This document shows positions 1-10,043 of a stretch of 10,043 bases of DNA, piece by piece. The notes below the pieces were generated by a model. The model was not told where the DNA came from. It did not search any database and saw only the letters and a program-made list of their open reading frames with translations. Both the position numbers and the translations under genes were made by a program. The stretch lies in the IMG/VR virus record IMGVR_UViG_2639762982_000013, positions 1-10,043 of that record; one strand, given 5' to 3'. The stretch is from a virus (taxonomy: Duplodnaviria > Heunggongvirae > Uroviricota > Caudoviricetes). How positions within the stretch are numbered: position 1 is the stretch's first letter; every line of letters begins with the position of its first letter.

Positions 1-516
1 ATGAAATTTAAAAAATGTCTTCTGCCTGTGGCAATGTTAGCGTCATTCACTCTGGCAGGATGCCAGTCAAATGCTGACGATCATGCCGCCGATGTTTATC
101 AAACCGATCAACTGAATACCAAACAAGAAACTAAAACCGTTAATATTATTTCCATTCTTCCCGCAAAAGTTGCCGTAGACAACTCCCAAAATAAACGGAA
201 CGCACAAGCCTTCGGCGCGCTTATTGGCGCAGTCGCTGGCGGTGTTATCGGCCACAACGTCGGTTCTGGCAGCAATTCCGGAACGACGGCAGGGGCAGTT
301 GGCGGCGGAGCTGTAGGCGCGGCAGCGGGTTCTATGGTGAATGATAAAACCTTAGTGGAAGGTGTTTCTTTAACATATAAGGAAGGCACCAAAGTGTATA
401 CCTCTACCCAGGTGGGTAAAGAGTGCCAGTTTACGACAGGTTTAGCCGTTGTTATTACCACAACGTATAACGAAACGCGTATTCAGCCAAATACTAAATG
501 TCCTGAAAAGAGCTAA
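1..516 (+). CDS. yfgH: Outer-membrane lipoprotein with glycine-zipper domain (YfgH-like); host gene
   Basis: 171-aa ORF. Lipoprotein signal peptide with lipobox LAGC (Cys21). Gly/Ala-rich GxxxG zipper segment (GALIGAVAGGVIGHNVG...). Gene symbol from memory of E. coli K-12 yfgH (same length class), not verified. Confidence 0.8.
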   Translation: MKFKKCLLPVAMLASFTLAGCQSNADDHAADVYQTDQLNTKQETKTVNIISILPAKVAVDNSQNKRNAQAFGALIGAVAGGVIGHNVGSGSNSGTTAGAVGGGAVGAAAGSMVNDKTLVEGVSLTYKEGTKVYTSTQVGKECQFTTGLAVVITTTYNETRIQPNTKCPEKS

Positions 517-531
517 TAATCAGGAGGAGTC

Positions 532-1071
532 ATGAAGAAAGTTTTTCTTTGCGCCATCTTGGCCTCCTTAAGCTATCCGGCTATCGCCTCATCATTGCAG
601 GATCAACTCTCTGCTGTAGCAGAAGCTGAACAGCAAGGTAAAAATGAAGAGCAAAGGCAGCATGACGAATGGGTCGCGGAGCGCAACAGGGAAATCCAGC
701 AAGAGAAGCAACGTCGCGCAAATGCCCAGGCCGCCGCTAACAAAAGAGCGGCAACGGCAGCAGCAAATAAGAAAGCTCGTCAGGATAAACTGGACGCCGA
801 AGCCTCTGCGGACAAAAAACGCGATCAAAGTTATGAAGATGAGCTACGCAGCTTAGAGATTCAGAAACAAAAACTGGCGCTGGCGAAAGAAGAAGCCCGC
901 GTTAAGCGAGAAAACGAATTTATCGATCAGGAACTGAAGCACAAAGCTGCGCAAACCGATGTGGTGCAATCTGAAGCTGACGCCAACAGAAATATGACTG
1001 AAGGCGGTCGCGATCTGATGAAAAGCGTGGGCAAAGCAGAAGAGAACAAATCGGACAGCTGGTTTAATTAA
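532..1071 (+). CDS. yfgI: Secreted/periplasmic charged coiled-coil protein (YfgI-like); host gene
   Basis: 179-aa ORF, strong SD AGGAGG 7 nt upstream. Sec signal peptide (…AIA/SS), then K/E/Q/A-rich low-complexity helical region. Synteny with the preceding yfgH-like gene; symbol from memory. Confidence 0.75.
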   Translation: MKKVFLCAILASLSYPAIASSLQDQLSAVAEAEQQGKNEEQRQHDEWVAERNREIQQEKQRRANAQAAANKRAATAAANKKARQDKLDAEASADKKRDQSYEDELRSLEIQKQKLALAKEEARVKRENEFIDQELKHKAAQTDVVQSEADANRNMTEGGRDLMKSVGKAEENKSDSWFN

Positions 1072-1110
1072 TCGATGTTAGTAACTTCAAGCCTATGATT
1101 CTTGAAGATA

Positions 1111-1142
1111 AAAAACCCTCTGTAGTAACAGAGGGTTTTGTT
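1111..1142. terminator. Bidirectional rho-independent terminator downstream of yfgI
   Basis: A5-CCCTCTG-tagtaa-CAGAGGG-T4: 7-bp GC-rich stem with A-tract before and T-tract after, so it is readable on both strands. Confidence 0.6.
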
Positions 1143-1267
1143 CATTCATAGTGCAGGGATTAAAATCATTCCCACTCAATTATTTACGACACGCATAACC
1201 AATTGACTGATAACAACTTTCTGCAACCTGACTTTCACCGTACCGTTTTATATACCGTCACCGAAAA

Positions 1268-1765
1268 TCAGTACCACGATTTTTGCTTCTTCAGTGAATC
1301 GTATTGCTGTTCGCAGGATTCTCCTGCAATCCGATACTTTTCAGCCTCAGCTGCTGTTGCGTTGTAAACTCGATTGCTTTCTTCAAGCATGTCGGCGAGC
1401 ACACCGATGACCTTGCTGGCTGGCGTGCCAGTGGGGAAAGATCCGGTATAGTGTTCGGCGAGTCGCTTGGTTTTGTCAAGCTCGGCGCGCAGGCTGTCAG
1501 CAGCGGCATTAGCATGCTCAGCATCAACACGCGCCACATCGATACGGGATTGTGCTTCACGTTCAATTTGTGTTTTCTCCTGATCACGTTGTGACCTAGC
1601 CTTATCATTAGCCTGTTTCTGATCTTCCTGTGCCTGCGCATACCCGGCGTCGTACTGACGACTGCCGTGTGCATTCCAGGCTACAACTCCTGATATGACC
1701 AGAACAGCAAGCATCGCCATGATAACCAACTGTTTCCAGTATGCTTTTACGAATGCCCAGATCAT
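1268..1765 (-). CDS. Phage i-spanin (Rz-like inner-membrane spanin subunit)
   Basis: 165 aa with N-terminal TM helix, then charged helical periplasmic domain. Start overlaps endolysin stop (ATGA). Last gene of the lysis cassette and contains an embedded lipoprotein ORF. Confidence 0.7.
1291..1539 (-). CDS. Phage o-spanin (Rz1-like outer-membrane lipoprotein), embedded in the i-spanin gene in another frame
   Basis: Internal Met of the 127-aa alternate-frame ORF gives [17 protein letters not shown]…: signal peptide plus lipobox LTAC, then a Pro/Ser-rich short mature region, as in lambda Rz1. Fully nested in 1268-1765. Exact start uncertain (alternative Met at 1524); no strong SD. Confidence 0.55.
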   Translation of the reverse strand: MWRVLMLSMLMPLLTACAPSLTKPSDSPNTIPDLSPLARQPARSSVCSPTCLKKAIEFTTQQQLRLKSIGLQENPANSNTIH

Positions 1766-2391
1766 ACCGCCAGCGCCTTACTGGCAGTGATGTACCGAGC
1801 GCGCCGGTCGTCGATGCCGTTCCTGCCACCATTGATAATCAGAGTTACACGTGCAATATCGCCGGTATACTTCATGCAACCTTTGCTGGAGAAGAACCAC
1901 GCCGCGCTACGAGCCGCGTATTCGTCCTGCGCCAACAGTTCAGGATTCTCCAGCAGGTCCACTTTCAGGCCGTTTCCGCAATCACGATAGTTATTCAAAC
2001 CGGTAATCTGGATAAGTCCGCGGCCACGGTAATTCCAGCCATCACCAGAGGCATTGTTCCCCATGCGTTTGCTGTACACCAGATTGGCGATCGCTCTCTG
2101 GCGCTCGAGTGGCAATGGTGGTTCACCAGCACGGCGACCAAGTGCATTAGCCTGTCCCTGAGTGAGACGCCCAGCCCGAACGAAGTTAGCCAGTCCGGTG
2201 ACGCTGTAGTTGAAATTTTCCTGCAACCGGGTGAATCCACCAGACTCATGCCCGACCTGAGCAATAAACATTGCCTGATCTTCAGCTTTGCTGATACCAA
2301 ACTCTTTCATCGCAGAAGTTATATGCGAGAACCAGCGTGCGGCCAGCGCCTCGCTAATACCAGCAGCTCGCTGGAATTGTTTAATCTCCAT
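1762..2391 (-). CDS. Phage endolysin, glycoside hydrolase family 19 (chitinase class I-like)
   Basis: 209 aa. Motifs [21 protein letters not shown] and AAWFF typical of GH19 phage lysins. SD GAGG 8 nt upstream. Flanked by membrane proteins and spanins. Confidence 0.9.
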
Positions 2392-2689
2392 GTTTAGACC
2401 TCGTTATTTTAAAAATCTGCACGACGTTACCGCGCGTTTTAATAACCGCAGCTAGCATGACAGCGTTGATAATGACCTCAGATAAATCCACAGCCATTGG
2501 CGTACGTAACCAGATTGCATAGGCGACACGAACAGGAATACTGGCCGCAGCAACAATCAGGAAATAAGCAAGCCATCCTCCCCACCTTCGGTGTTGAGAG
2601 CCGTTACGCCGGAATGTGACAACGCGAATTGCTATGCCAGTGCAAATAACTGCATTGGTGATAAGCAAAAAAAACTCATGCGTTACCAT
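2381..2689 (-). CDS. Lysis-cassette small membrane protein (holin/antiholin-like)
   Basis: 102 aa with 2-3 predicted TM helices. SD GGAG 8 nt upstream. Overlaps the upstream gene by 14 nt and the endolysin start by 11 nt, indicating translational coupling. Confidence 0.55.
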
Positions 2690-3089
2690 CGTCTTTTCTC
2701 CCCGGAATTAACTCGCGTGGATTATCGGAACGGTGATAAAGCCATATACCAATTCGCACAGCGACAATTGACGACACAAATGCGCCAGCAGAGAAGACGA
2801 TCCCTTTCTCGAAAGAGTCCTGCGTGATGGTAGGGATCAGGCTGGCTACACCGATAAGGATGGATGCTGTAGGTTTGTAAAAGAGAAGGCCGCAGAGGAA
2901 GCTGAGCATAGACAGGAGAACCCGGCGATGAATGGGATACTCGATGGCTGAGGTAACAAAAATTACCGCCCCAGCCAAAGCTCCCAAAGCCACCTCTGGA
3001 GGAACCCCTGCTATCACCGCAGCAAGAGAACTCGCACTAAGCCACTGATTTAAAGACTCACTGGTTAGCTGAACTGACATAAAAAACAC
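2676..3089 (-). CDS. Putative holin (multi-pass membrane protein), first gene of lysis cassette
   Basis: 137 aa with 3-4 hydrophobic helices and a charged C-terminus. Position directly upstream of the endolysin. Start may be the second ATG at 3080. Family not recognised. Confidence 0.55.
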   Translation of the reverse strand: MFFMSVQLTSESLNQWLSASSLAAVIAGVPPEVALGALAGAVIFVTSAIEYPIHRRVLLSMLSFLCGLLFYKPTASILIGVASLIPTITQDSFEKGIVFSAGAFVSSIVAVRIGIWLYHRSDNPRELIPGRKDDGNA

Positions 3090-3185
3090 CGTTTAATGTG
3101 CATAAAGAATCCCCTTAGTTGGTTAGTTCATCATACACAATAAACCATATGTGGATTAAACTTGATCTGATAATTCTTAACGAAA

Positions 3186-3200
3186 TTACCTTAAAGGTGA
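3186..3200. promoter_or_regulatory. Palindromic site A (TTACC-TTAAA-GGTGA), member of a five-copy family
   Basis: Lies in the 212-bp gap between the tail fibre and the lysis operon, about 100 bp upstream of the holin start. One mismatch from a perfect palindrome. Flank ATATC is shared with site C. Confidence 0.4.
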
Positions 3201-3301
3201 TATCATAAATATCCTTGTGTCATTTAAAATTAGAGTTAGGGCATGATAGCCAACATACAATATTTGCGTTTTCTCGCTGCATTCCTTGGCGATGACTTCT
3301 C

Positions 3302-5065
3302 TTAAACAACAATTTTAAGGAAATTTGAAGCATCCTTATAGATGGTGCCCGCGGTGGCGCCGTTTATCTCCTCAAGCGTTTTTACATTCTTCAAAACCAC
3401 CTTGCCATCTTCCAGAAATTCAATGCATGGTGCGTCGTTGTTCATGTTTATTTTCAACGAACCAACAGCACTACCTCCGTTTCCGCTTATCCATTCAAGT
3501 GACGCAATAGGAAGTGCATTGCCGTTGTGATCTGTCCCTTGTAGCAAGATCCTTCCAGTTCCTACCCCTGGTATTCTGATAGCTGCGCGACCACCATCCT
3601 CTAAAACTACTTCCAAAATTTCTTTAGGATATTTTGTGTGCACTCCTACACGCGTCAGCGAACCACCACCACCAGGGACGACGGCAATACCTGGAATAAG
3701 CGATTCTGCAAAAAGCATCACTGAGTCTTTATGTGGATTGATTGCTGGCTTATCGTCATTAGTGCCGCTCCCTATCGCAATCGAACCACCATAAGCCTGA
3801 ATATTCTTACCTACAGCAAAAGAGCCATCTCCTGCCGCGCGAGTTCGATATCCAATGGCTGCCGCACCAATGCCATCACTTGCAACCCCGCCGGGGTCTG
3901 TAGTGTATCCCGGTCTGGCTTGTGTATAATAACCTGTTGCAAAAGCCGCCCTTGAAAGCGCTTCCGTTTCTTCACAGAATGCGGCAGATTTTGCTCCAAG
4001 AGCAATGACATTTTTCCCAAATGCAAAAGAGCAGTACCCCTCAGCATTTGGTGAGGTAATATGATCTGGGTCCCCAGTGGCAGAACCAGCACCACCGGCA
4101 ATAGATGCCACGCCGTACGTAACGCAGTCATGCCCGAAAGTTGTGGTGTATACCGCGAATGACGCACCGTTTCTGTTAAAAGATACTGAGTAATCACCGA
4201 TAAGAGCCGGGTTACACCATGAATTTCTCGGTGTAGGCAAGCCTCTCCAGAAGTTCTTTTCATCGTCAAGTGGTAGGAGATCGGCACCACCAATTCTCAG
4301 CCAACCTTTATCCTTATCAAAAGAAAAAGTGACGCCATCGGTTAAAGTAGATCCAACCGGTATACCGTAATTAACTTTTGTGCCAATCCTCTTAAGCCCG
4401 TCAGGTTGCGCCAGCAATAACAGAACATCTGCTGCACTACCGCTCTCAGGCAAGACCATAATGGACTCACCTGCATAATCATATGCATGGATCATATTTG
4501 CACGTTCTGCAGCAGGAGGGAGTTGCCGCGTAAATGACTCTGGAACCCTTAACGTGTGCAGATAGTTGTTGTTACTAATCGTGTCTACATAATTTTTAGT
4601 GGCAGCATCCTGCGGGTCTCGTGGGTCGCGCAGGTTGCGAATGTAATTCCCCAGCGCGTCGTACCAGTTAGCGATGGTTGATGGCTTGCGCAGCGCCAAG
4701 GCAAACCAACTGCGAACCTGCTGGATCAGCATCGTCAGTTTATCGAATGCGTCTTCATGCACCTCAGCGAAGAACTTACCCTGGTTGCGCAGATCGGTAT
4801 CCTGCGTAACCGGTAGCTCTCTTGATATAGAAATCTGATAACCGTTAGCCAACGCCTTCGACAGAATTACATTGCCGCCGTTATACCCTCCCGCACCAGT
4901 GACTATGTAATCAGTATCAAGAATCAGCTCTGTGATGTTCTCGTTCAGGTCAACAACCTGCACTACTAAATCAGATTTCTGGAAAATCCTGAAGGTATAA
5001 GGGAATGCCGTTGTAACACCGTTACCTGTGTATTCGTTGTGGTCAACTTCGGTTGAGACCGTCAT
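3302..5065 (-). CDS. Phage tail fibre / tailspike protein
   Basis: 587 aa. The N-terminal ~150 aa (MTVSTEVDHNEYTGNGVTTAFPYTF…DYIVTG) resembles the conserved T7 gp17-type virion-attachment domain. The C-terminal two thirds are Gly/Ala/Ser-rich with repeated beta-strand-like motifs (SFAVGKN, SIAIGSGT, IGAAAIGY), as in trimeric receptor-binding domains. Confidence 0.85.
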   Translation of the reverse strand: MTVSTEVDHNEYTGNGVTTAFPYTFRIFQKSDLVVQVVDLNENITELILDTDYIVTGAGGYNGGNVILSKALANGYQISISRELPVTQDTDLRNQGKFFAEVHEDAFDKLTMLIQQVRSWFALALRKPSTIANWYDALGNYIRNLRDPRDPQDAATKNYVDTISNNNYLHTLRVPESFTRQLPPAAERANMIHAYDYAGESIMVLPESGSAADVLLLLAQPDGLKRIGTKVNYGIPVGSTLTDGVTFSFDKDKGWLRIGGADLLPLDDEKNFWRGLPTPRNSWCNPALIGDYSVSFNRNGASFAVYTTTFGHDCVTYGVASIAGGAGSATGDPDHITSPNAEGYCSFAFGKNVIALGAKSAAFCEETEALSRAAFATGYYTQARPGYTTDPGGVASDGIGAAAIGYRTRAAGDGSFAVGKNIQAYGGSIAIGSGTNDDKPAINPHKDSVMLFAESLIPGIAVVPGGGGSLTRVGVHTKYPKEILEVVLEDGGRAAIRIPGVGTGRILLQGTDHNGNALPIASLEWISGNGGSAVGSLKINMNNDAPCIEFLEDGKVVLKNVKTLEEINGATAGTIYKDASNFLKIVV

Positions 5066-5169
5066 GTTAAATCTCCAGATAGTCGCAGCACCCGTTGCGC
5101 CGCATATCTGGTTATTCTATTACCTGAAAAACCACATATGGATAGAAAGACTATAAATACCAATAGATA

Positions 5170-5184
5170 TTACCTTTCGGGTAA
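5170..5184. promoter_or_regulatory. Palindromic site B (TTACC-TTTCG-GGTAA)
   Basis: Perfect 5-bp inverted arms with a 5-nt spacer in the divergent region between the tail fibre gene and the small SOS-box gene. Confidence 0.4.
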
Positions 5185-5221
5185 TTTGCAAAACGTGCTG
5201 GATAGCAAACAAATTATTTGA

Positions 5222-5241
5222 TACTGTATATTTATACAGTT
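5222..5241. promoter_or_regulatory. LexA (SOS) box
   Basis: TACTGTATATTTATACAGTT matches the E. coli LexA consensus TACTGTATATATATACAGTA at 18/20, with CTGT-N8-ACAG intact. Located 20 bp upstream of the ATG at 5261 and overlapping a plausible -10. Confidence 0.7.
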
Positions 5242-5260
5242 ATTGCATGGAGAAGATAAG

Positions 5261-5518
5261 ATGCAGCAGTATCACTATCCACTGGAAGACGGATTTACCG
5301 AAAGGATTCACACGCCGGGAGGCGTCAGGTCACTGGTGGAGGGATCGCACTTGATGAAATTACTCCGGGATCTCGATAAGGATGGATTTAATGTCGATGG
5401 CCCACTTGCCGAACTGACTGCACTGATTAACTACGTCACCAGCTCACAGATGTCTATGCTGGATCTGCAAACACATCTCGACTATTGTGCCGAACAATTA
5501 CGAAAACAAACCCGGTAA
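5261..5518 (+). CDS. Small SOS-regulated protein, candidate Tum-like antirepressor (homologous to C-terminal domain of the AntA protein at 6669-7325)
   Basis: 85 aa from the ATG at 5261 with SD GGAGAAG; the ORF track extends it to a TTG at 5243. Roughly 40% identity by eye to the last ~80 aa of the 218-aa AntA-domain protein (IH[TS]P[GS]GV…LM.LL..L..DG..V.G..AELT…D.QTH..Y). LexA box immediately upstream. Confidence 0.6.
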   Translation: MQQYHYPLEDGFTERIHTPGGVRSLVEGSHLMKLLRDLDKDGFNVDGPLAELTALINYVTSSQMSMLDLQTHLDYCAEQLRKQTR

Positions 5519-5522
5519 ATTT

Positions 5523-5542
5523 AAAGGCCGCAAGAGCGGCCT
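5523..5542. terminator. Bidirectional rho-independent terminator between convergent genes
   Basis: AGGCCGC-aaga-GCGGCCT stem-loop with A-rich 5' flank and T-rich 3' flank. Sits between the + gene ending at 5518 and the - gene ending at 5541. Confidence 0.6.
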
Positions 5543-6269
5543 ATCGTTTCGCTTTGTGCTCGTCCCAGCACGTTTTGCACCATGCCATTAAGCCATCCGC
5601 ATTTTGATTATTAGGGTAAAAGCTTGTTCGTTTTCTGCGGACATTACAAATTGGGCACCACTTCATATGGCGTGTATTCTTTGGGCCATCGAGACACCTT
5701 GCACACCACTTAGTCAATCCATCTGGATTTTTTGACGATTTCCTGAATTTTTCATATGGTAGGTTTATTCTGCATCGCAAGCACTGCTTGCTACCACTTG
5801 AAACTCTGTTAGCTGATTCTTCTTTTGGCGGCGATACAGAAGGTATTCTTGCTGGCTCTGATACTGCCTGAGGTGCTTTTTTAGATGACTGAGACGATAT
5901 GTCATCACCAGGGAATCTTCCATGATATGCCGGACGCGTTGACACTCCAGGTGGAAGCTCAGCTGTAAACGGCTTTGGCTGAATCAGTTGCCTCTCTTTT
6001 GCTAACTCCTGCTGTTTATAATATGTCTGGATTACCGCACTATCATAAGCAGGAGGTGCGGAAATATTAGGCGCATTACCTCCAGTTTTTTGAAACTGAG
6101 TAGAGGTGTGTTCTATCACCTGTGTACGATTAATCGTTATCTCCCCATCTTCGGTCTTTATCGTTTTGTTATGATTAACGACCGTACGATCAGAGATCTT
6201 AGTCTTGTTCTGGTTGATAACGTAAATAATCACCGCAACCACACCAACAACTATCCAGAAAACTTCCAT
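5541..6269 (-). CDS. Membrane-anchored protein with tandem C4 zinc-ribbon repeats (function unknown)
   Basis: 242 aa. N-terminal TM helix (residues ~4-20) followed by K/R (positive-inside), a Pro/Ser/Gln-rich linker, then two copies of CxxC-x16-DGL-x2-WC-x2-C. SD GAGGA 8 nt upstream of the ATG. Confidence 0.7.
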   Translation of the reverse strand: MEVFWIVVGVVAVIIYVINQNKTKISDRTVVNHNKTIKTEDGEITINRTQVIEHTSTQFQKTGGNAPNISAPPAYDSAVIQTYYKQQELAKERQLIQPKPFTAELPPGVSTRPAYHGRFPGDDISSQSSKKAPQAVSEPARIPSVSPPKEESANRVSSGSKQCLRCRINLPYEKFRKSSKNPDGLTKWCARCLDGPKNTRHMKWCPICNVRRKRTSFYPNNQNADGLMAWCKTCWDEHKAKR

Positions 6270-6289
6270 TGCTTTTCCTCACAATAACA

Positions 6290-6304
6290 TTACCTTAAAG
6301 GTAA
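6290..6304. promoter_or_regulatory. Palindromic site C (TTACC-TTAAA-GGTAA)
   Basis: Perfect palindrome about 10 bp upstream of the SD of the minus-strand zinc-ribbon gene. Core identical to sites A and D. Confidence 0.4.
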
Positions 6305-6382
6305 TATCTTGCTTTCAGGTGATCAAGCGTTAAACGCAATCAACCAAATACGGTTGATTTTAATATTTCTTCGCGTTTATCA

Positions 6383-6397
6383 TTACCTTTGCGGTAA
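6383..6397. promoter_or_regulatory. Palindromic site E (TTACC-TTTGC-GGTAA)
   Basis: Same arms as the other sites, with a spacer like site B. Lies just upstream of the structured leader preceding the AntA gene. Confidence 0.35.
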
Positions 6398-6488
6398 ATT
6401 TACATTGCACTCCTCTTGTGCCATAGTAATCGGGCACTGGCAAAATCCAGTGCCGGGATTGGTCTCCCGGATTACTAAGTGGCGCATA

Positions 6489-6510
6489 CCACGCCAGACG
6501 TGGTTTTTTT
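6489..6510 (+). terminator. Putative intrinsic terminator / attenuator hairpin in the leader of the AntA-like gene
   Basis: CCACG-ccaga-CGTGG followed by T7. Preceded by two GC-rich hairpins (6433-6454 and 6453-6470) that share bases, so alternative pairings are possible. Confidence 0.4.
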
Positions 6511-6668
6511 ATGCGTATAGCACAGTCATGCCAGAATTATGGTGGGCTGAATGGGGGTCCGAAAGGACGCCGGTACCACTTAGGCCGGTAAGACCAACTC
6601 CGTTCAGTTCACCACCATCTGATTGGTCTCAGCGGTGGTGATGTAATTCGCTAAGTGGAGACGCCATC

Positions 6669-7325
6669 ATGAACGCTCAACTCATCCCCGTATTCAACGG
6701 CACTATATCTAACGAAACAGCCCTACTTTGTAATGCCCGCGATCTGCACGCTTTTTTAGGTGTTAAAAAGGTGTTTGCAGCATGGATTACAAATCGCATA
6801 TCAGAATACGAATTCATTGAAAATCAAGACTATATTTTGCTTTCCAATTTGGGAAAGCAAACATCTGGTAGAGGCGGCCACAACCGCAAAGAGTACCACC
6901 TCACCCTTGATACAGCCAAAGAGCTGGCGATGGTCGAGCGTAACGAAAAAGGTCGCCAGGTGCGACGCTACTTCATTGAATGCGAGAAACGTTTAAGACA
7001 ACAAGAAACAAAAGTGGAGAAGGTCTTGTCAGGCTTCATGCCCGCCATTATGGAGGCGATCAAGCTGGAAGACAAAAAAGAATACAGCGCCCCACTGAAG
7101 CCCGGCTACCGCAGCCTGATTCATTCGCCGTCTGGTGTTCTTGGACTGACGGAGAACTCACTGCTGATGAATCTGCTGAACCAGTTACAGGACGACGGGC
7201 ATGACGTATCGGGCGCGGCGGCGGAGCTGACCACCATGTTCTGCTACATCGTCGGTGTGAGCAAATGCCTGCGTGATATCCAGACGCACGCGGAGTACAT
7301 CAGCGACAAAGCAGGATTCTTCTGA
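6669..7325 (+). CDS. Phage antirepressor-like protein, N-terminal AntA-type domain with a C-terminal domain shared with the 5261-5518 protein
   Basis: 218 aa, SD GGAG 8 nt upstream. N-terminal region ([10 protein letters not shown]…[33 protein letters not shown]) matches the AntA/pRha-type antirepressor N-domain pattern. C-terminal ~80 aa is paralogous to the small SOS-box protein. Confidence 0.8.
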
Positions 7326-7391
7326 CGGGCGGCGGCACAGGGATGTGCCTTTAAAATAATCATTGGCGATGTGATGTAGATTCGCGTAATA

Positions 7392-7406
7392 TTACCTTAA
7401 AGGTAA
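7392..7406. promoter_or_regulatory. Palindromic site D (TTACC-TTAAA-GGTAA)
   Basis: Perfect palindrome about 43 bp upstream of the ATG at 7449, the first gene of the low-GC two-gene module. Confidence 0.4.
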
Positions 7407-7448
7407 ACCTGTTTTTATTTTATACCTGTAACTTACCGGAGATTAAAG

Positions 7449-7775
7449 ATGACAAAACTTGGATTCGTGATGAGAGGTCCGGTAAGAAGCGGAACTCATG
7501 CAAAGCGTAGCAAGAGTCGTATTTTTACTGGTAAGGTTGTAGCACGTAAATCAGCTATTGGCTCGTTCAATAGTGAAAATGCGGCATTGCGCCATATTTT
7601 TATCAGCACAAAGCCAAGAGCATCCGCTGATGTGCATACAATGTCTATTCCTATCACAAAGAATATAAAGCGGATAAAAAAGCTCTCATCTGCAGAATCA
7701 AAAGAGATATCTTTCCGCCAGCTTAACTCATTAGAAACGCATATGAAGGAAGAGGAATTCGATGTTTTTGAGTGA
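7449..7775 (+). CDS. Small highly basic protein, candidate antitoxin / partner of the downstream YafO-like protein
   Basis: 108 aa, SD GGAG 8 nt upstream. Very K/R-rich N-terminal two thirds and an acidic C-terminal tail (EEEFDVFE). Overlaps the downstream gene by 14 nt. No recognisable Phd/YefM or other antitoxin fold from sequence. Confidence 0.5.
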   Translation: MTKLGFVMRGPVRSGTHAKRSKSRIFTGKVVARKSAIGSFNSENAALRHIFISTKPRASADVHTMSIPITKNIKRIKKLSSAESKEISFRQLNSLETHMKEEEFDVFE

Positions 7776-8274
7776 GTATAGCGGGAAGGTTATACCTACT
7801 GGTGAGTTTAAAACTGATGACTTTCTGATTTCGCTAAAAGATGCTTTTAAACAACACTGGCGTCATGGTCATCATCCTGATCTGGGAAAAGATACTCTTT
7901 TTGAAAGACCAGACGAAGTATTAGGCTTCCATCTCAGAAAGGTTCATGTCAATATTGGTGAATATGCATCATATTCATACTCATGTACTGAACAGTGTTG
8001 GGATGAGTGGTCATATGGATTGATTGATGAACAAGGAAATTACAGGCCAAAACCAACCAGTAACGCATATCTCATATATGCAGTCAATGAAATAAGAGAT
8101 GCAGCCTTACTAGCTTATTGGGACCCGCCCGCACACACCAAAGCTAACGCAAAAGTTTGGATGGATTCCGTATTGAATTTCACAAAATTATTTCATGAAC
8201 GAACGAATACAGCCCCACTTAGTAGAAATGTTTATCCGTGGGATTATTCGTACAAATCCAAAAAGCCTGCATAG
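7762..8274 (+). CDS. YafO-like toxin-domain protein (putative ribosome-dependent mRNA interferase)
   Basis: 170 aa with a strong SD (AGGAAGAGGA). From memory of E. coli YafO, the motifs align: PDLGKDTLFE / FHLRKVHVNI / AYLIYAV…AALLAYWDPPAHTKA versus YafO PDIFGRDALYD / FERVAHIHLA / AHLVYCQ…AWLLIAILKPEPHKLA. About 40 aa longer than YafO. Local GC is about 38-40% against about 50% in the flanks. Confidence 0.55.
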   Translation: MFLSEYSGKVIPTGEFKTDDFLISLKDAFKQHWRHGHHPDLGKDTLFERPDEVLGFHLRKVHVNIGEYASYSYSCTEQCWDEWSYGLIDEQGNYRPKPTSNAYLIYAVNEIRDAALLAYWDPPAHTKANAKVWMDSVLNFTKLFHERTNTAPLSRNVYPWDYSYKSKKPA

Positions 8275-8355
8275 TAGTTTTTTATGGACGAAACAAAAGT
8301 CAGTGCTACACTCATTGACGCCACATTGAGGTGGCTTATAGATGGAAATGTCACA

Positions 8356-8517
8356 ATGAAAAAAGCATTTGCTGCACTGTTCGTTTTGTTGTCTCTGGTA
8401 GCTTCAACTCAGGCCTTTGCCGGTCGTTGTCAGCACGACAGCGATACTGCCGCTGACGGCTCCCGCTGCGGTGGGCGTTCTGCGGATTCCCGCCCGGGCG
8501 GTGGTGGCATTCGTTAA
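8356..8517 (+). CDS. Small secreted Cys/Gly-rich peptide (hypothetical)
   Basis: Internal Met of the 77-aa ORF gives MKKAFAALFVLLSLVASTQAFA/GRCQ…, a canonical Sec signal peptide with AxA cleavage site and a ~31-aa mature peptide containing 2 Cys and a Gly-rich tail. Weak SD; local GC is high. Confidence 0.4.
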   Translation: MKKAFAALFVLLSLVASTQAFAGRCQHDSDTAADGSRCGGRSADSRPGGGGIR

Positions 8518-8522
8518 AAACA

Positions 8523-8540
8523 AGGCCGCGAAAGCGGCCT
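8523..8540. terminator. Bidirectional rho-independent terminator (mainly for the minus-strand membrane-protein gene)
   Basis: AGGCCGC-gaaa-GCGGCCT, near-identical stem to the terminator at 5523-5542. On the minus strand it is followed by TTTTTAAC. Confidence 0.55.
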
Positions 8541-8548
8541 GTGACATG

Positions 8549-8845
8549 TCACACTCTTTTTCTGAATGATAGCCATTCGAAAAATGATGACATTCCACCG
8601 CAGACAATAGCAAAGATGATCCCACCAAAGAATAGAAGGCCAGCCTGCCACCACTCCCACCGCCATACATCCACAGCGCCAACCATACCAACAATCGCTC
8701 CAACAAATGGAATATAGCTCACGATGAAAGCAATGGGGGCTGCAATTATCCAGTGCAATCCCCACCATGATTCAAGCCCAGCCATAATTGCTGCCAACTG
8801 AAAAAGACCAACGACGATATAAACAATGAATCCTATCGCTTGCAT
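8549..8845 (-). CDS. Small Trp-rich integral membrane protein (3 predicted TM helices), function unknown
   Basis: 98 aa, hydrophobic throughout with a WRWEWW motif. The terminator lies immediately downstream. A possible 50-codon hydrophobic ORF with a GTG start (8858-9010) sits 14 nt upstream. Confidence 0.6.
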   Translation of the reverse strand: MQAIGFIVYIVVGLFQLAAIMAGLESWWGLHWIIAAPIAFIVSYIPFVGAIVGMVGAVDVWRWEWWQAGLLFFGGIIFAIVCGGMSSFFEWLSFRKRV

Positions 8846-9040
8846 GTAGTTACCTATTTACCCAGTAAAAATCAGAGGCCTCCCCTCAATAAGGCTTGCA
8901 ACAAGAACTACTCCCTGCACAACAAAGATGAACCAGCAAATAGCTTGAGTCTGAGGGTTAAGAAAATATTTGTAGCGGTCAATAAATAACAGTCCACCAG
9001 AAATTATCACACTCAAAATAATTAAAAACACAACACTTCC

Positions 9041-9865
9041 TTATTGCGGAGTGACATCCTGAGGTCGCCACCAGTATGTCTGGTTAAACTCTTTCTTCGA
9101 ACGTTGCTCCATTTTACGCAAATAGCCTGGTGAAAAATACTCCTGCATCTGGTTAAAGATCATGTGATCGAGAGCCGCCTTCAAGTACCAGAGATTCGCA
9201 CCAGGCATCAAACCTTTCCCCAGCTTCACCAGATCACCACCAGTCTGCTCACTCTTCCCTTCCACAGCATTTAACGGTATGCCCTGAGCAATCTTCACTA
9301 CGTCATCAACCAGACCAGCTACCGGGCCAAGCATCGACGCCAGCGCGCCGCTTCCGTACCTAGTGTGATCTGACAATAAAAAGTCACCGTAAAGGCCAAG
9401 ACCACCACCTTTCAGTAGAGCACCAAGCCAAAATTTAGCAGCATCTTCTCCTGTCATCTCGCGAGGATTACGACCAGACGCAAGGTCGTTAAGTTGCTGC
9501 GACAAAGCGCCAAGAATGGTCGTACTGGCAATAAACGTCGCAATATATGCCGCACGCCCACCAGCAGACGGCATACCCATAGCGCGTGACCAGTGACGCA
9601 TAACCACCGAGATAGGGAACGATTTAAACAGGAAAACACTTCTCGTTAATTCACCTTTCCATGTTCCACGCTGAATACCAGAACCGGTTATCAGTTGCTC
9701 ACGTGCTCCCGGTGTAATAACAGCCATATCAACTTCTTCAGTTACGGCACCGAGCAGTTTACGCATTGCCTCAAATTTCACGCGTTCAGGCTCACCAAGA
9801 TGTTTAACTGCTGAATCAGGGATACGCATAATGCTTTCCGGTGTCAGCATCGTATTATTACCGTT
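9041..9865 (-). pseudogene. 3' fragment of a phage protein (possibly virion/ejection-associated) truncated by IS2 insertion
   Basis: The 283-aa ORF listed from 9892 takes its first 9 codons (MSGNIGANP) from inside the IS2 terminal repeat. The native reading frame continues upstream across the IS boundary at 9865/9866, so the N-terminal part of the gene lies beyond IS2. No family recognised. Confidence 0.55.
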
Positions 9866-10043
9866 TGGATTTGCCCCTATATTTCCAGACACCTGTTATC
9901 ACTTAACCCATTACTGGCTTGCTGCCGTAGATATTCCCGTGGCGAGCGATAACCCAGTGCACTATGCGGATGCCATTCGTTATAATGCTCGAATGCCTCT
10001 GCAAGGTTCTTTGCTGCCGTTAACCCGTCTGGTTTGGGCATGA
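9866..10043 (-). mobile_element. IS2 (IS3 family), partial: right terminal repeat and 3' end of the transposase; the element continues beyond the window
   Basis: The reverse complement of 9866-9908 reads GGTTAAGTGATAACAGGTGTCTGGAAATATAGGGGCAAATCCA, which matches the IS2 right end as I recall it. The adjoining ORF encodes an IS3-family transposase C-terminus. Confidence 0.8.
9877..10043 (-). CDS. insD: IS2 transposase OrfB (InsD) C-terminal end, partial
   Basis: Minus-strand translation …[54 protein letters not shown] with stop at 9877-9879. The motif [13 protein letters not shown] is characteristic of the IS3-family integrase C-terminus. The 5' part is outside the window. Confidence 0.8.

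Follow-up and report, generated by a model that had tools for sequence, protein, structure and literature searches.

An IS2 insertion divides a gp17-like virion structural protein gene in an epsilon15-like prophage of Escherichia coli

In Escherichia coli K-12, the IS2 copy IS2A (NC_000913.3 381260-382590) splits yaiX and is recorded in RefSeq as a 1331-bp mobile element of the IS3 family. Salmonella phage epsilon15 (genus Uetakevirus) encodes gp17, which carries the label 'virion structural protein' in its record, and mass spectrometry together with amber-mutant work on epsilon15 forms the basis for placing gp17 in virions and for the need for it in infectivity. Amber mutants in gene 17 are reportedly non-infectious. 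The IS2 fusion promoter of ampC is said to have been described by Jaurin and Normark in 1983. Fusion promoters of this kind are on record for ampC, acrEF and neo, with the -10 element supplied by the flanking DNA (PMC9330008). The right end of IS2 holds an outward -35 element that pairs with a -10 element of the left end across the minicircle junction, forming Pjunc with a mandatory 17-bp spacer (PMC3219604, PMC3299598). Here, we analyse a 10,043-nt stretch of viral DNA (the window, by which we mean this whole stretch) and conclude with high confidence that a single, very recent insertion of a 1331-bp IS2 into the gp17-like gene of an epsilon15-like prophage has left that gene in two fragments.

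Positions 9866 to 10043 of the window belong to an IS2 isoform (IS3 family) and form its right end, on the minus strand. These 178 nt are 100% identical to E. coli copies labelled 'IS3 family transposase' and share 95.5% identity with the corresponding end of K-12 IS2A, from which they depart at 8 positions. The DDE transposase of the IS2 subfamily, OrfB/InsD, is represented in the window by its last 54 codons only (9880-10041, minus strand), which are near-identical to the C terminus of K-12 InsD and are read in the same direction as the interrupted phage gene. Past the transposase stop codon (9877-9879), the minus strand continues as ...CTGGAAATATAGGGGCAAATCCA, and the IS2 right terminus ...GGGGCAAATCCA-3' ends at 9866. 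Comparison with K-12 IS2A delimits a right inverted repeat of 41 bp (9866-9906, minus strand), which departs from the last 41 nt of IS2A by one mismatch, an A-to-G change 27 nt from the tip. Among 5,426 complete E. coli genomes, 4,371 contain the 178-nt end, at 19,273 places in all; the median genome has 3 such places and the richest has 41. When positions 8800 to 10043 were compared with the same genomes by megablast, 204 records matched 8800-9865, all ending exactly at 9865. This break in homology and the identity of the IS place the junction at 9865/9866, precisely where the earlier note had set it, and chance is no issue because the matches are exact and long.

The phage side of the junction (9041-9865, minus strand) is the 3′ fragment of a virion structural protein gene, comprising codons 551 to 824 and the stop. 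An IS-free allele (L003:3551-6025) contains the intact gene of 2475 nt and 824 aa, to which the fragment aligns with 0 mismatches over 825 nt from gene nt 1651 (codon 551), as expected of the split gene for which an alignment to intact orthologues had been proposed. The IS2 therefore stands after codon 550 of 824, on a codon boundary and in gene-sense orientation. The 824-aa protein matches the PHROG 684 profile 'virion structural protein' (E=0, 1284.5 bits; residues 1-824 on profile positions 1-831 of 840), and epsilon15 gp17 is recovered by tblastn with 27.7% aa identity at 100% coverage (E=3e-87). It is 99.2-99.6% identical to proteins of three phage records, namely PH444, O157 typing phage 9 and vB_EcoP_ZX5, and ~94% identical to those of Salmonella phages SPN9TCW and SPNIS2; its remoter relatives are labelled 'internal virion protein'. 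Searches of Pfam, NCBIfam, PDB (phmmer) and PADLOC gave no match for this protein. The genes leading up to it encode a T7-gp14-family core protein, an 837-aa protein and a 600-aa protein, in the same order as in epsilon15. Together, these comparisons identify the interrupted gene as the positional and sequence orthologue of epsilon15 gp17 (PHROG 684). The suggestion that the native gene encodes a virion or ejection protein is supported on the same grounds: the end-to-end PHROG 684 match, orthology with gp17 and a location downstream of the T7-gp14-family core gene. Candidate molecular roles for the product are a distal tail tube or hub protein and an ejected core protein. In an ENA metagenome (L011:767-3240) and a Logan run (L016:647-3120), the same gene appears as ORFs of 527 and 262 aa owing to a 1-nt deletion that creates a stop at codon 528, which is either an independent pseudogenisation or a sequencing error.

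A 5-bp duplication combined with the IS2 left end predicts a reciprocal junction that reads, on the gene strand, ...GGGGG AACGG/TAGACTGGCCCCCTGA... and encodes aa 1-552 followed by RLAP and a stop, a product of 556 aa. This exact sequence, ending in NGRLAP, was found in a public protein collection (P0001). Its contig (L009) is JPQX01000023.1 of GCA_000835055.1, an accession next to that of the window's assembly; the junction there is ...GGGGGAACGG/TAGACTGGCCCCC, and the contig stops 195 nt into the IS2 left end. The left repeat TAGACTGGCCCCC... (TA-3′ end) and the start of orfA are both present in this contig. Upstream of the junction lie capsid (GP7), Bbp16, Gp10-like, tail and T7_gp14 genes, with 100% identity to the IS-free allele across 5,172 nt. 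The empty site in the IS-free allele is GGGGGAACGGTAATA, the left side of the IS in L009 is GGGGGAACGG/TAGACTGG and the right side in the window is AAATCCA/AACGGTAATA. AACGG thus flanks the IS on both sides and is single at the empty site; comparison of the empty site with both junctions locates one copy of this 5-bp target-site duplication at 9861-9865 of the window (CCGTT on the plus strand, AACGG on the gene strand). The left flank of the duplication was read in the sister assembly GCA_000835055.1, and not demonstrably in GCA_000835045.1, which the window matches. The gene was split rather than deleted, in agreement with the earlier note, as seen from the reciprocal IS2-left-end junction with its AACGG duplication and from the virion genes upstream.

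These data bear on two other accounts of the locus. The junction lies 247 nt from the end of a draft contig, is absent from all 5,426 complete E. coli genomes and gave 0 exact matches in GTDB representative genomes, all of which would suit an assembly artefact, with IS2 mis-joined at the contig end to what is actually an uninterrupted gene. Against this, the window's contig and the reciprocal junction contig are reported in 3 samples each, the latter is a separate contig with exactly the predicted junction and duplication, and a random mis-join would not yield a precise IS terminus together with a matching 5-bp repeat; we put the probability of such an artefact close to nil. Alternatively, IS2 may have mediated or later undergone a rearrangement (an adjacent deletion, an inversion or a composite with a second IS2) that unlinked the fragment from the prophage. 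Both contigs break within the IS, so that linkage across it is presumptive; the element is multicopy in E. coli (the median of 3 and maximum of 41 places per genome given above), and a later inversion or translocation between IS2 copies would leave both junctions unaltered. The same 5-bp duplication at both junctions and its single copy at the empty site are nonetheless the signature of one simple insertion, an adjacent deletion would destroy one of the copies, and the prophage genes upstream have been retained without a difference from the IS-free allele. A rearrangement is very unlikely on this evidence, and one simple insertion is the reading we retain.

Over its last 195 nt, the reciprocal contig has 10 mismatches to the left end of K-12 IS2A, only one of which (position 42) falls within the 42-bp repeat. 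This left end and the 247-nt right end (178 nt of the window plus 69 further contig bases) each match, at 100% identity, one complete 1331-bp element of E. coli 13C1079T (L010), which is bordered by its own 5-bp duplication, CTTTT, and aligns to IS2A with 95.6% identity and no gaps. The OrfB of this element scores 709.7 bits against NCBIfam NF006918 'IS2 transposase TnpB' (cutoff 597) and 207.5 bits against NF033516 transpos_IS3 (cutoff 160). By sequence comparison, every IS2 feature open to test was found: both termini, the 5-bp duplication and an OrfB of the IS2 subfamily. No assembly read carries the IS2 body as one contiguous piece at this locus, and the parts present amount to 247 nt at the right end and 195 nt at the left. 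The window matches the terminal part of draft contig JPPP01000001.1 (GCA_000835045.1) with 100% identity, and that contig stops 69 nt further on, still within the IS; a break at this point is as expected, short-read contigs usually breaking in a multicopy, collapsed repeat. Extension beyond position 10043, which the earlier note had called for, gains these 69 nt, whereas the second copy of the duplication and the left IS terminus come from the sister assembly.

The IS-free allele differs from window positions 1-9865 by one mismatch, at position 315 in yfgH, and the prophage part is identical. Because the prophage part lacks any mismatch to the IS-free allele, the IS2 insertion is very recent and lineage-specific. 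Two NCBI protein accessions, KIQ43010.1 and KIQ48459.1, carry the 262-aa form of the downstream fragment. In metagenome scaffold ERZ28616892 (L017, around locus positions 548-559), a run of 10 Ns starts exactly after gene nt 1650 and the sequence picks up again at nt 1680; the gap may conceal the same IS2 insertion, bridged during scaffolding.

The junction gives rise to several formal reading frames. An ORF of 283 aa (9041-9892, minus strand) starts at a GTG at 9892-9890 within the IS2 right repeat and enters the phage part at 9865 with codon 551 (AAC). The 27 nt from 9866 to 9892 (minus strand) are IS2-derived, as seen from comparison with K-12 IS2A and the intact gene, and supply GTG and a total of 9 codons (VSGNIGANP), so that the figure of nine codons given for the IS2 terminal repeat was exact and the ORF is a formal fusion of an IS2 start to phage codons from 551 onward, as had been proposed. 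The description of this ORF as annotated is true only in part: 283 aa is the longest ORF, but public annotations give 262 aa (start 9829, NCBI) or 269 aa (start 9850, Logan). Public protein look-ups returned no exact match to the 283-aa sequence with either V or M as first residue, and the 269-aa form was found only in a Logan contig of 1.3 kb, which stops 14 nt before reaching the junction, diverges downstream and is thus uninformative. Upstream of the GTG at 9892 there is no Shine-Dalgarno-like sequence, and no convincing ribosome-binding site was seen at this GTG or at the ATG codons at 9850 and 9829. Calling the longest ORF, which picks the GTG in the IS2 right repeat as its start, is what produces the 283-aa ORF. 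The corresponding outward start codon in the right repeat of K-12 IS2A (L008) is ATG (MSGNIGANP), converted to GTG in the isoform found here by the A-to-G change. Any in-frame insertion of IS2 in the same orientation therefore adds a formal 9-codon N terminus to the fragment downstream, which makes the repeat a generic source of chimeric ORF calls. The ORF of the upstream fragment ends four codons into the IS (aa 1-552, then RLAP and the stop). The ORF list contains a second chimera, a 70-aa plus-strand ORF (9831-10043) that starts in phage sequence and runs antisense through the IS2 end; public gene calls list it as a gene (L004/L012, 70-282), almost certainly wrongly.

Directly downstream of the split gene lies a small hydrophobic ORF (8858-9031, minus strand) of at most 57 aa (46 aa in other annotations), recognised by Kyte-Doolittle 19-mer windows of at least 1.6 and by synteny, in the position of epsilon15 gp18. 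It is followed by the last gene of the interrupted transcription unit (8549-8845, minus strand), which encodes a 98-aa hydrophobic protein with a profile match to PHROG 3075 (unknown function). A terminator-like hairpin at 8540-8523, after this gene, closes the unit. From these two small hydrophobic ORFs, the window continues through a moron block, the tail spike, two holins, a GH19 endolysin, a DUF2514 Rz-like spanin, and yfgI and yfgH. The last two are host genes (window 1-1071), and the prophage adjoins yfgI in an E. coli host. The tail spike (587 aa; 3302-5065, minus strand) was assigned from PHROG tail families. The earlier note had placed the fragment upstream of the tail fibre on the same strand; the strand is correct, but a ~3-kb block with four moron genes of the opposite strand (6669-8517) and the hairpin at 8540-8523 come between. 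Only the two small hydrophobic ORFs, and not the tail spike, share the interrupted transcription unit.

The moron block (5541-8517), between the tail spike and the virion module, is variable among otherwise near-identical prophages. It encodes a 242-aa minus-strand protein with endonuclease VII and Lar-like zinc-ribbon matches, an AntA/Ant antirepressor (6669-7325), a pair of 108-aa and 170-aa proteins (7449-8274) whose match to the YafO toxin is weak and sub-threshold, and a 77-aa protein that apparently has a signal peptide; PADLOC gave no match for any of the moron block proteins. For the tail spike, only the N-terminal ~230 aa, the head-binding part that matches many PHROG tail families, are common with related prophages, and the C-terminal part belongs to no family beyond PHROG 14251. 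NR379 encodes a 781-aa GH28-type spike at the position of the 587-aa protein, and the difference between tail spikes amounts to a swap of the receptor-binding domain. The prophage end (attachment site) falls within 1072-1267, between yfgI (532-1071) and the Rz-like gene (1268-1765), an arrangement that equals the Rz-attP-int layout of epsilon15.

The right end of IS2 might also drive the genes that it now precedes. From its own promoter, or from a hybrid with a -10 element in the flank, it would express the C-terminal fragment and the two small membrane-protein genes, a gain of expression that has several features in its favour: the outward -35 element of the IS2 right end (PMC3219604, PMC3299598), the documented fusion promoters of ampC, acrEF and neo (PMC9330008), a suitable orientation of the IS, and an interval from transposase stop to junction with no predicted terminator-like site on the minus strand. 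In those three cases, as at the present locus, the same IS end with its outward -35 faces the gene downstream in the same orientation (PMC9330008, PMC3219604). As reconstructed here, the minicircle junction reads TGGAAA-17-TAGACT, which positions the likely -35 element, TGGAAA, at 9887-9882 on the minus strand. At this junction, a 17-bp spacer from TGGAAA places the -10 on ACGGTA, which matches at 0/6 positions, and a hand count with 16-bp or 18-bp spacers gave no improvement. On the minus strand from 9960 to 9700, no site reaches 8/12 matches, and a promoter scan returned no sigma-70-like site on that strand across the junction. A hybrid promoter composed of the IS2 -35 and a flanking -10 was rejected, as the scan found no -10 in the flank. 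The ampC, acrEF and neo cases possess a correctly spaced -10 in the flank, which is absent here. The starts at 9892, 9850 and 9829 all lack a good Shine-Dalgarno sequence, and read-through from the weak, OrfA-repressed IS2 promoter is expected to be low. The earlier idea of outward promoters in the IS2 end was consequently not borne out, given that the right end contributes an outward -35 only (PMC3219604) and the correctly spaced hexamer is ACGGTA; activation from the IS2 end is unlikely. For the two small membrane-protein genes downstream, a polar effect of the insertion is more probable than activation.

The simplest reading of the sequence is one IS2 isoform and one insertion, in gene-sense orientation. 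An IS2 isoform (1331 bp, IS3 family, transposing by copy-out/paste-in via a minicircle) entered the gp17-like gene once, its target being an epsilon15-like (Uetakevirus-type) prophage that an E. coli strain carries beside yfgI. Insertion took place after codon 550 of 824 in gene sense, with duplication of AACGG, and left two gene fragments, aa 1-552 with RLAP and a stop upstream of the IS, and codons 551-824 downstream, the piece held in the window. The full-length gp17-like product can no longer be made. Because viable relatives conserve this virion protein and its full-length form is missing here, we reasonably infer that the prophage would be unable to make infectious particles and is in this sense probably defective. 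The retained C-terminal fragment has two hydrophobic, glycine-rich stretches. That its 262-283 aa, or the two small membrane proteins, are expressed by IS2 read-through and give the lysogen a phenotype is extremely improbable; interference with DNA ejection by related podophages would be an example if this were true, and the insertion would then be a step of IS-driven prophage domestication.

The significance of the locus lies mostly in annotation hygiene, as a single gene disrupted by IS2 accounts for the ORFs of 283, 262/269, 556 and 70 aa, which call for annotation as pseudogene fragments or artefacts. A flag on the prophage is also warranted, since induction would probably not yield infectious particles. 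The intact and gp17::IS2 alleles form a natural pair that offers a chance to test the need for the gp17-like protein in E. coli prophages of the Uetakevirus type.

Among Uetakevirus relatives, epsilon15 gp17 aligns with the intact allele over its full length, and the typing phage 9 and ZX5 proteins are 99.2-99.4% identical to it. The order gp14-family protein, gp15, gp16, gp17, small membrane protein, tailspike, holins, endolysin and Rz is common to this prophage and its epsilon15/Uetakevirus relatives. In contrast to these phages, the gene is interrupted here, and the moron block and the C-terminal domain of the tail spike differ. The element has the same termini as K-12 IS2A, TAGACTGGCCCCC... 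on the left and ...GGGGCAAATCCA on the right, and in both cases a gene, in K-12 one of the host, is cut into two annotated fragments. Unlike IS2A, the present copy is an isoform with ~4.4% nucleotide divergence, its target is a prophage virion gene and the full element is unassembled at this site. The IS2 disruption is real and the core reading of it correct, yet the event is an ordinary one of a kind already known, with nothing unexpected about it and a ready counterpart in yaiX::IS2A of K-12.
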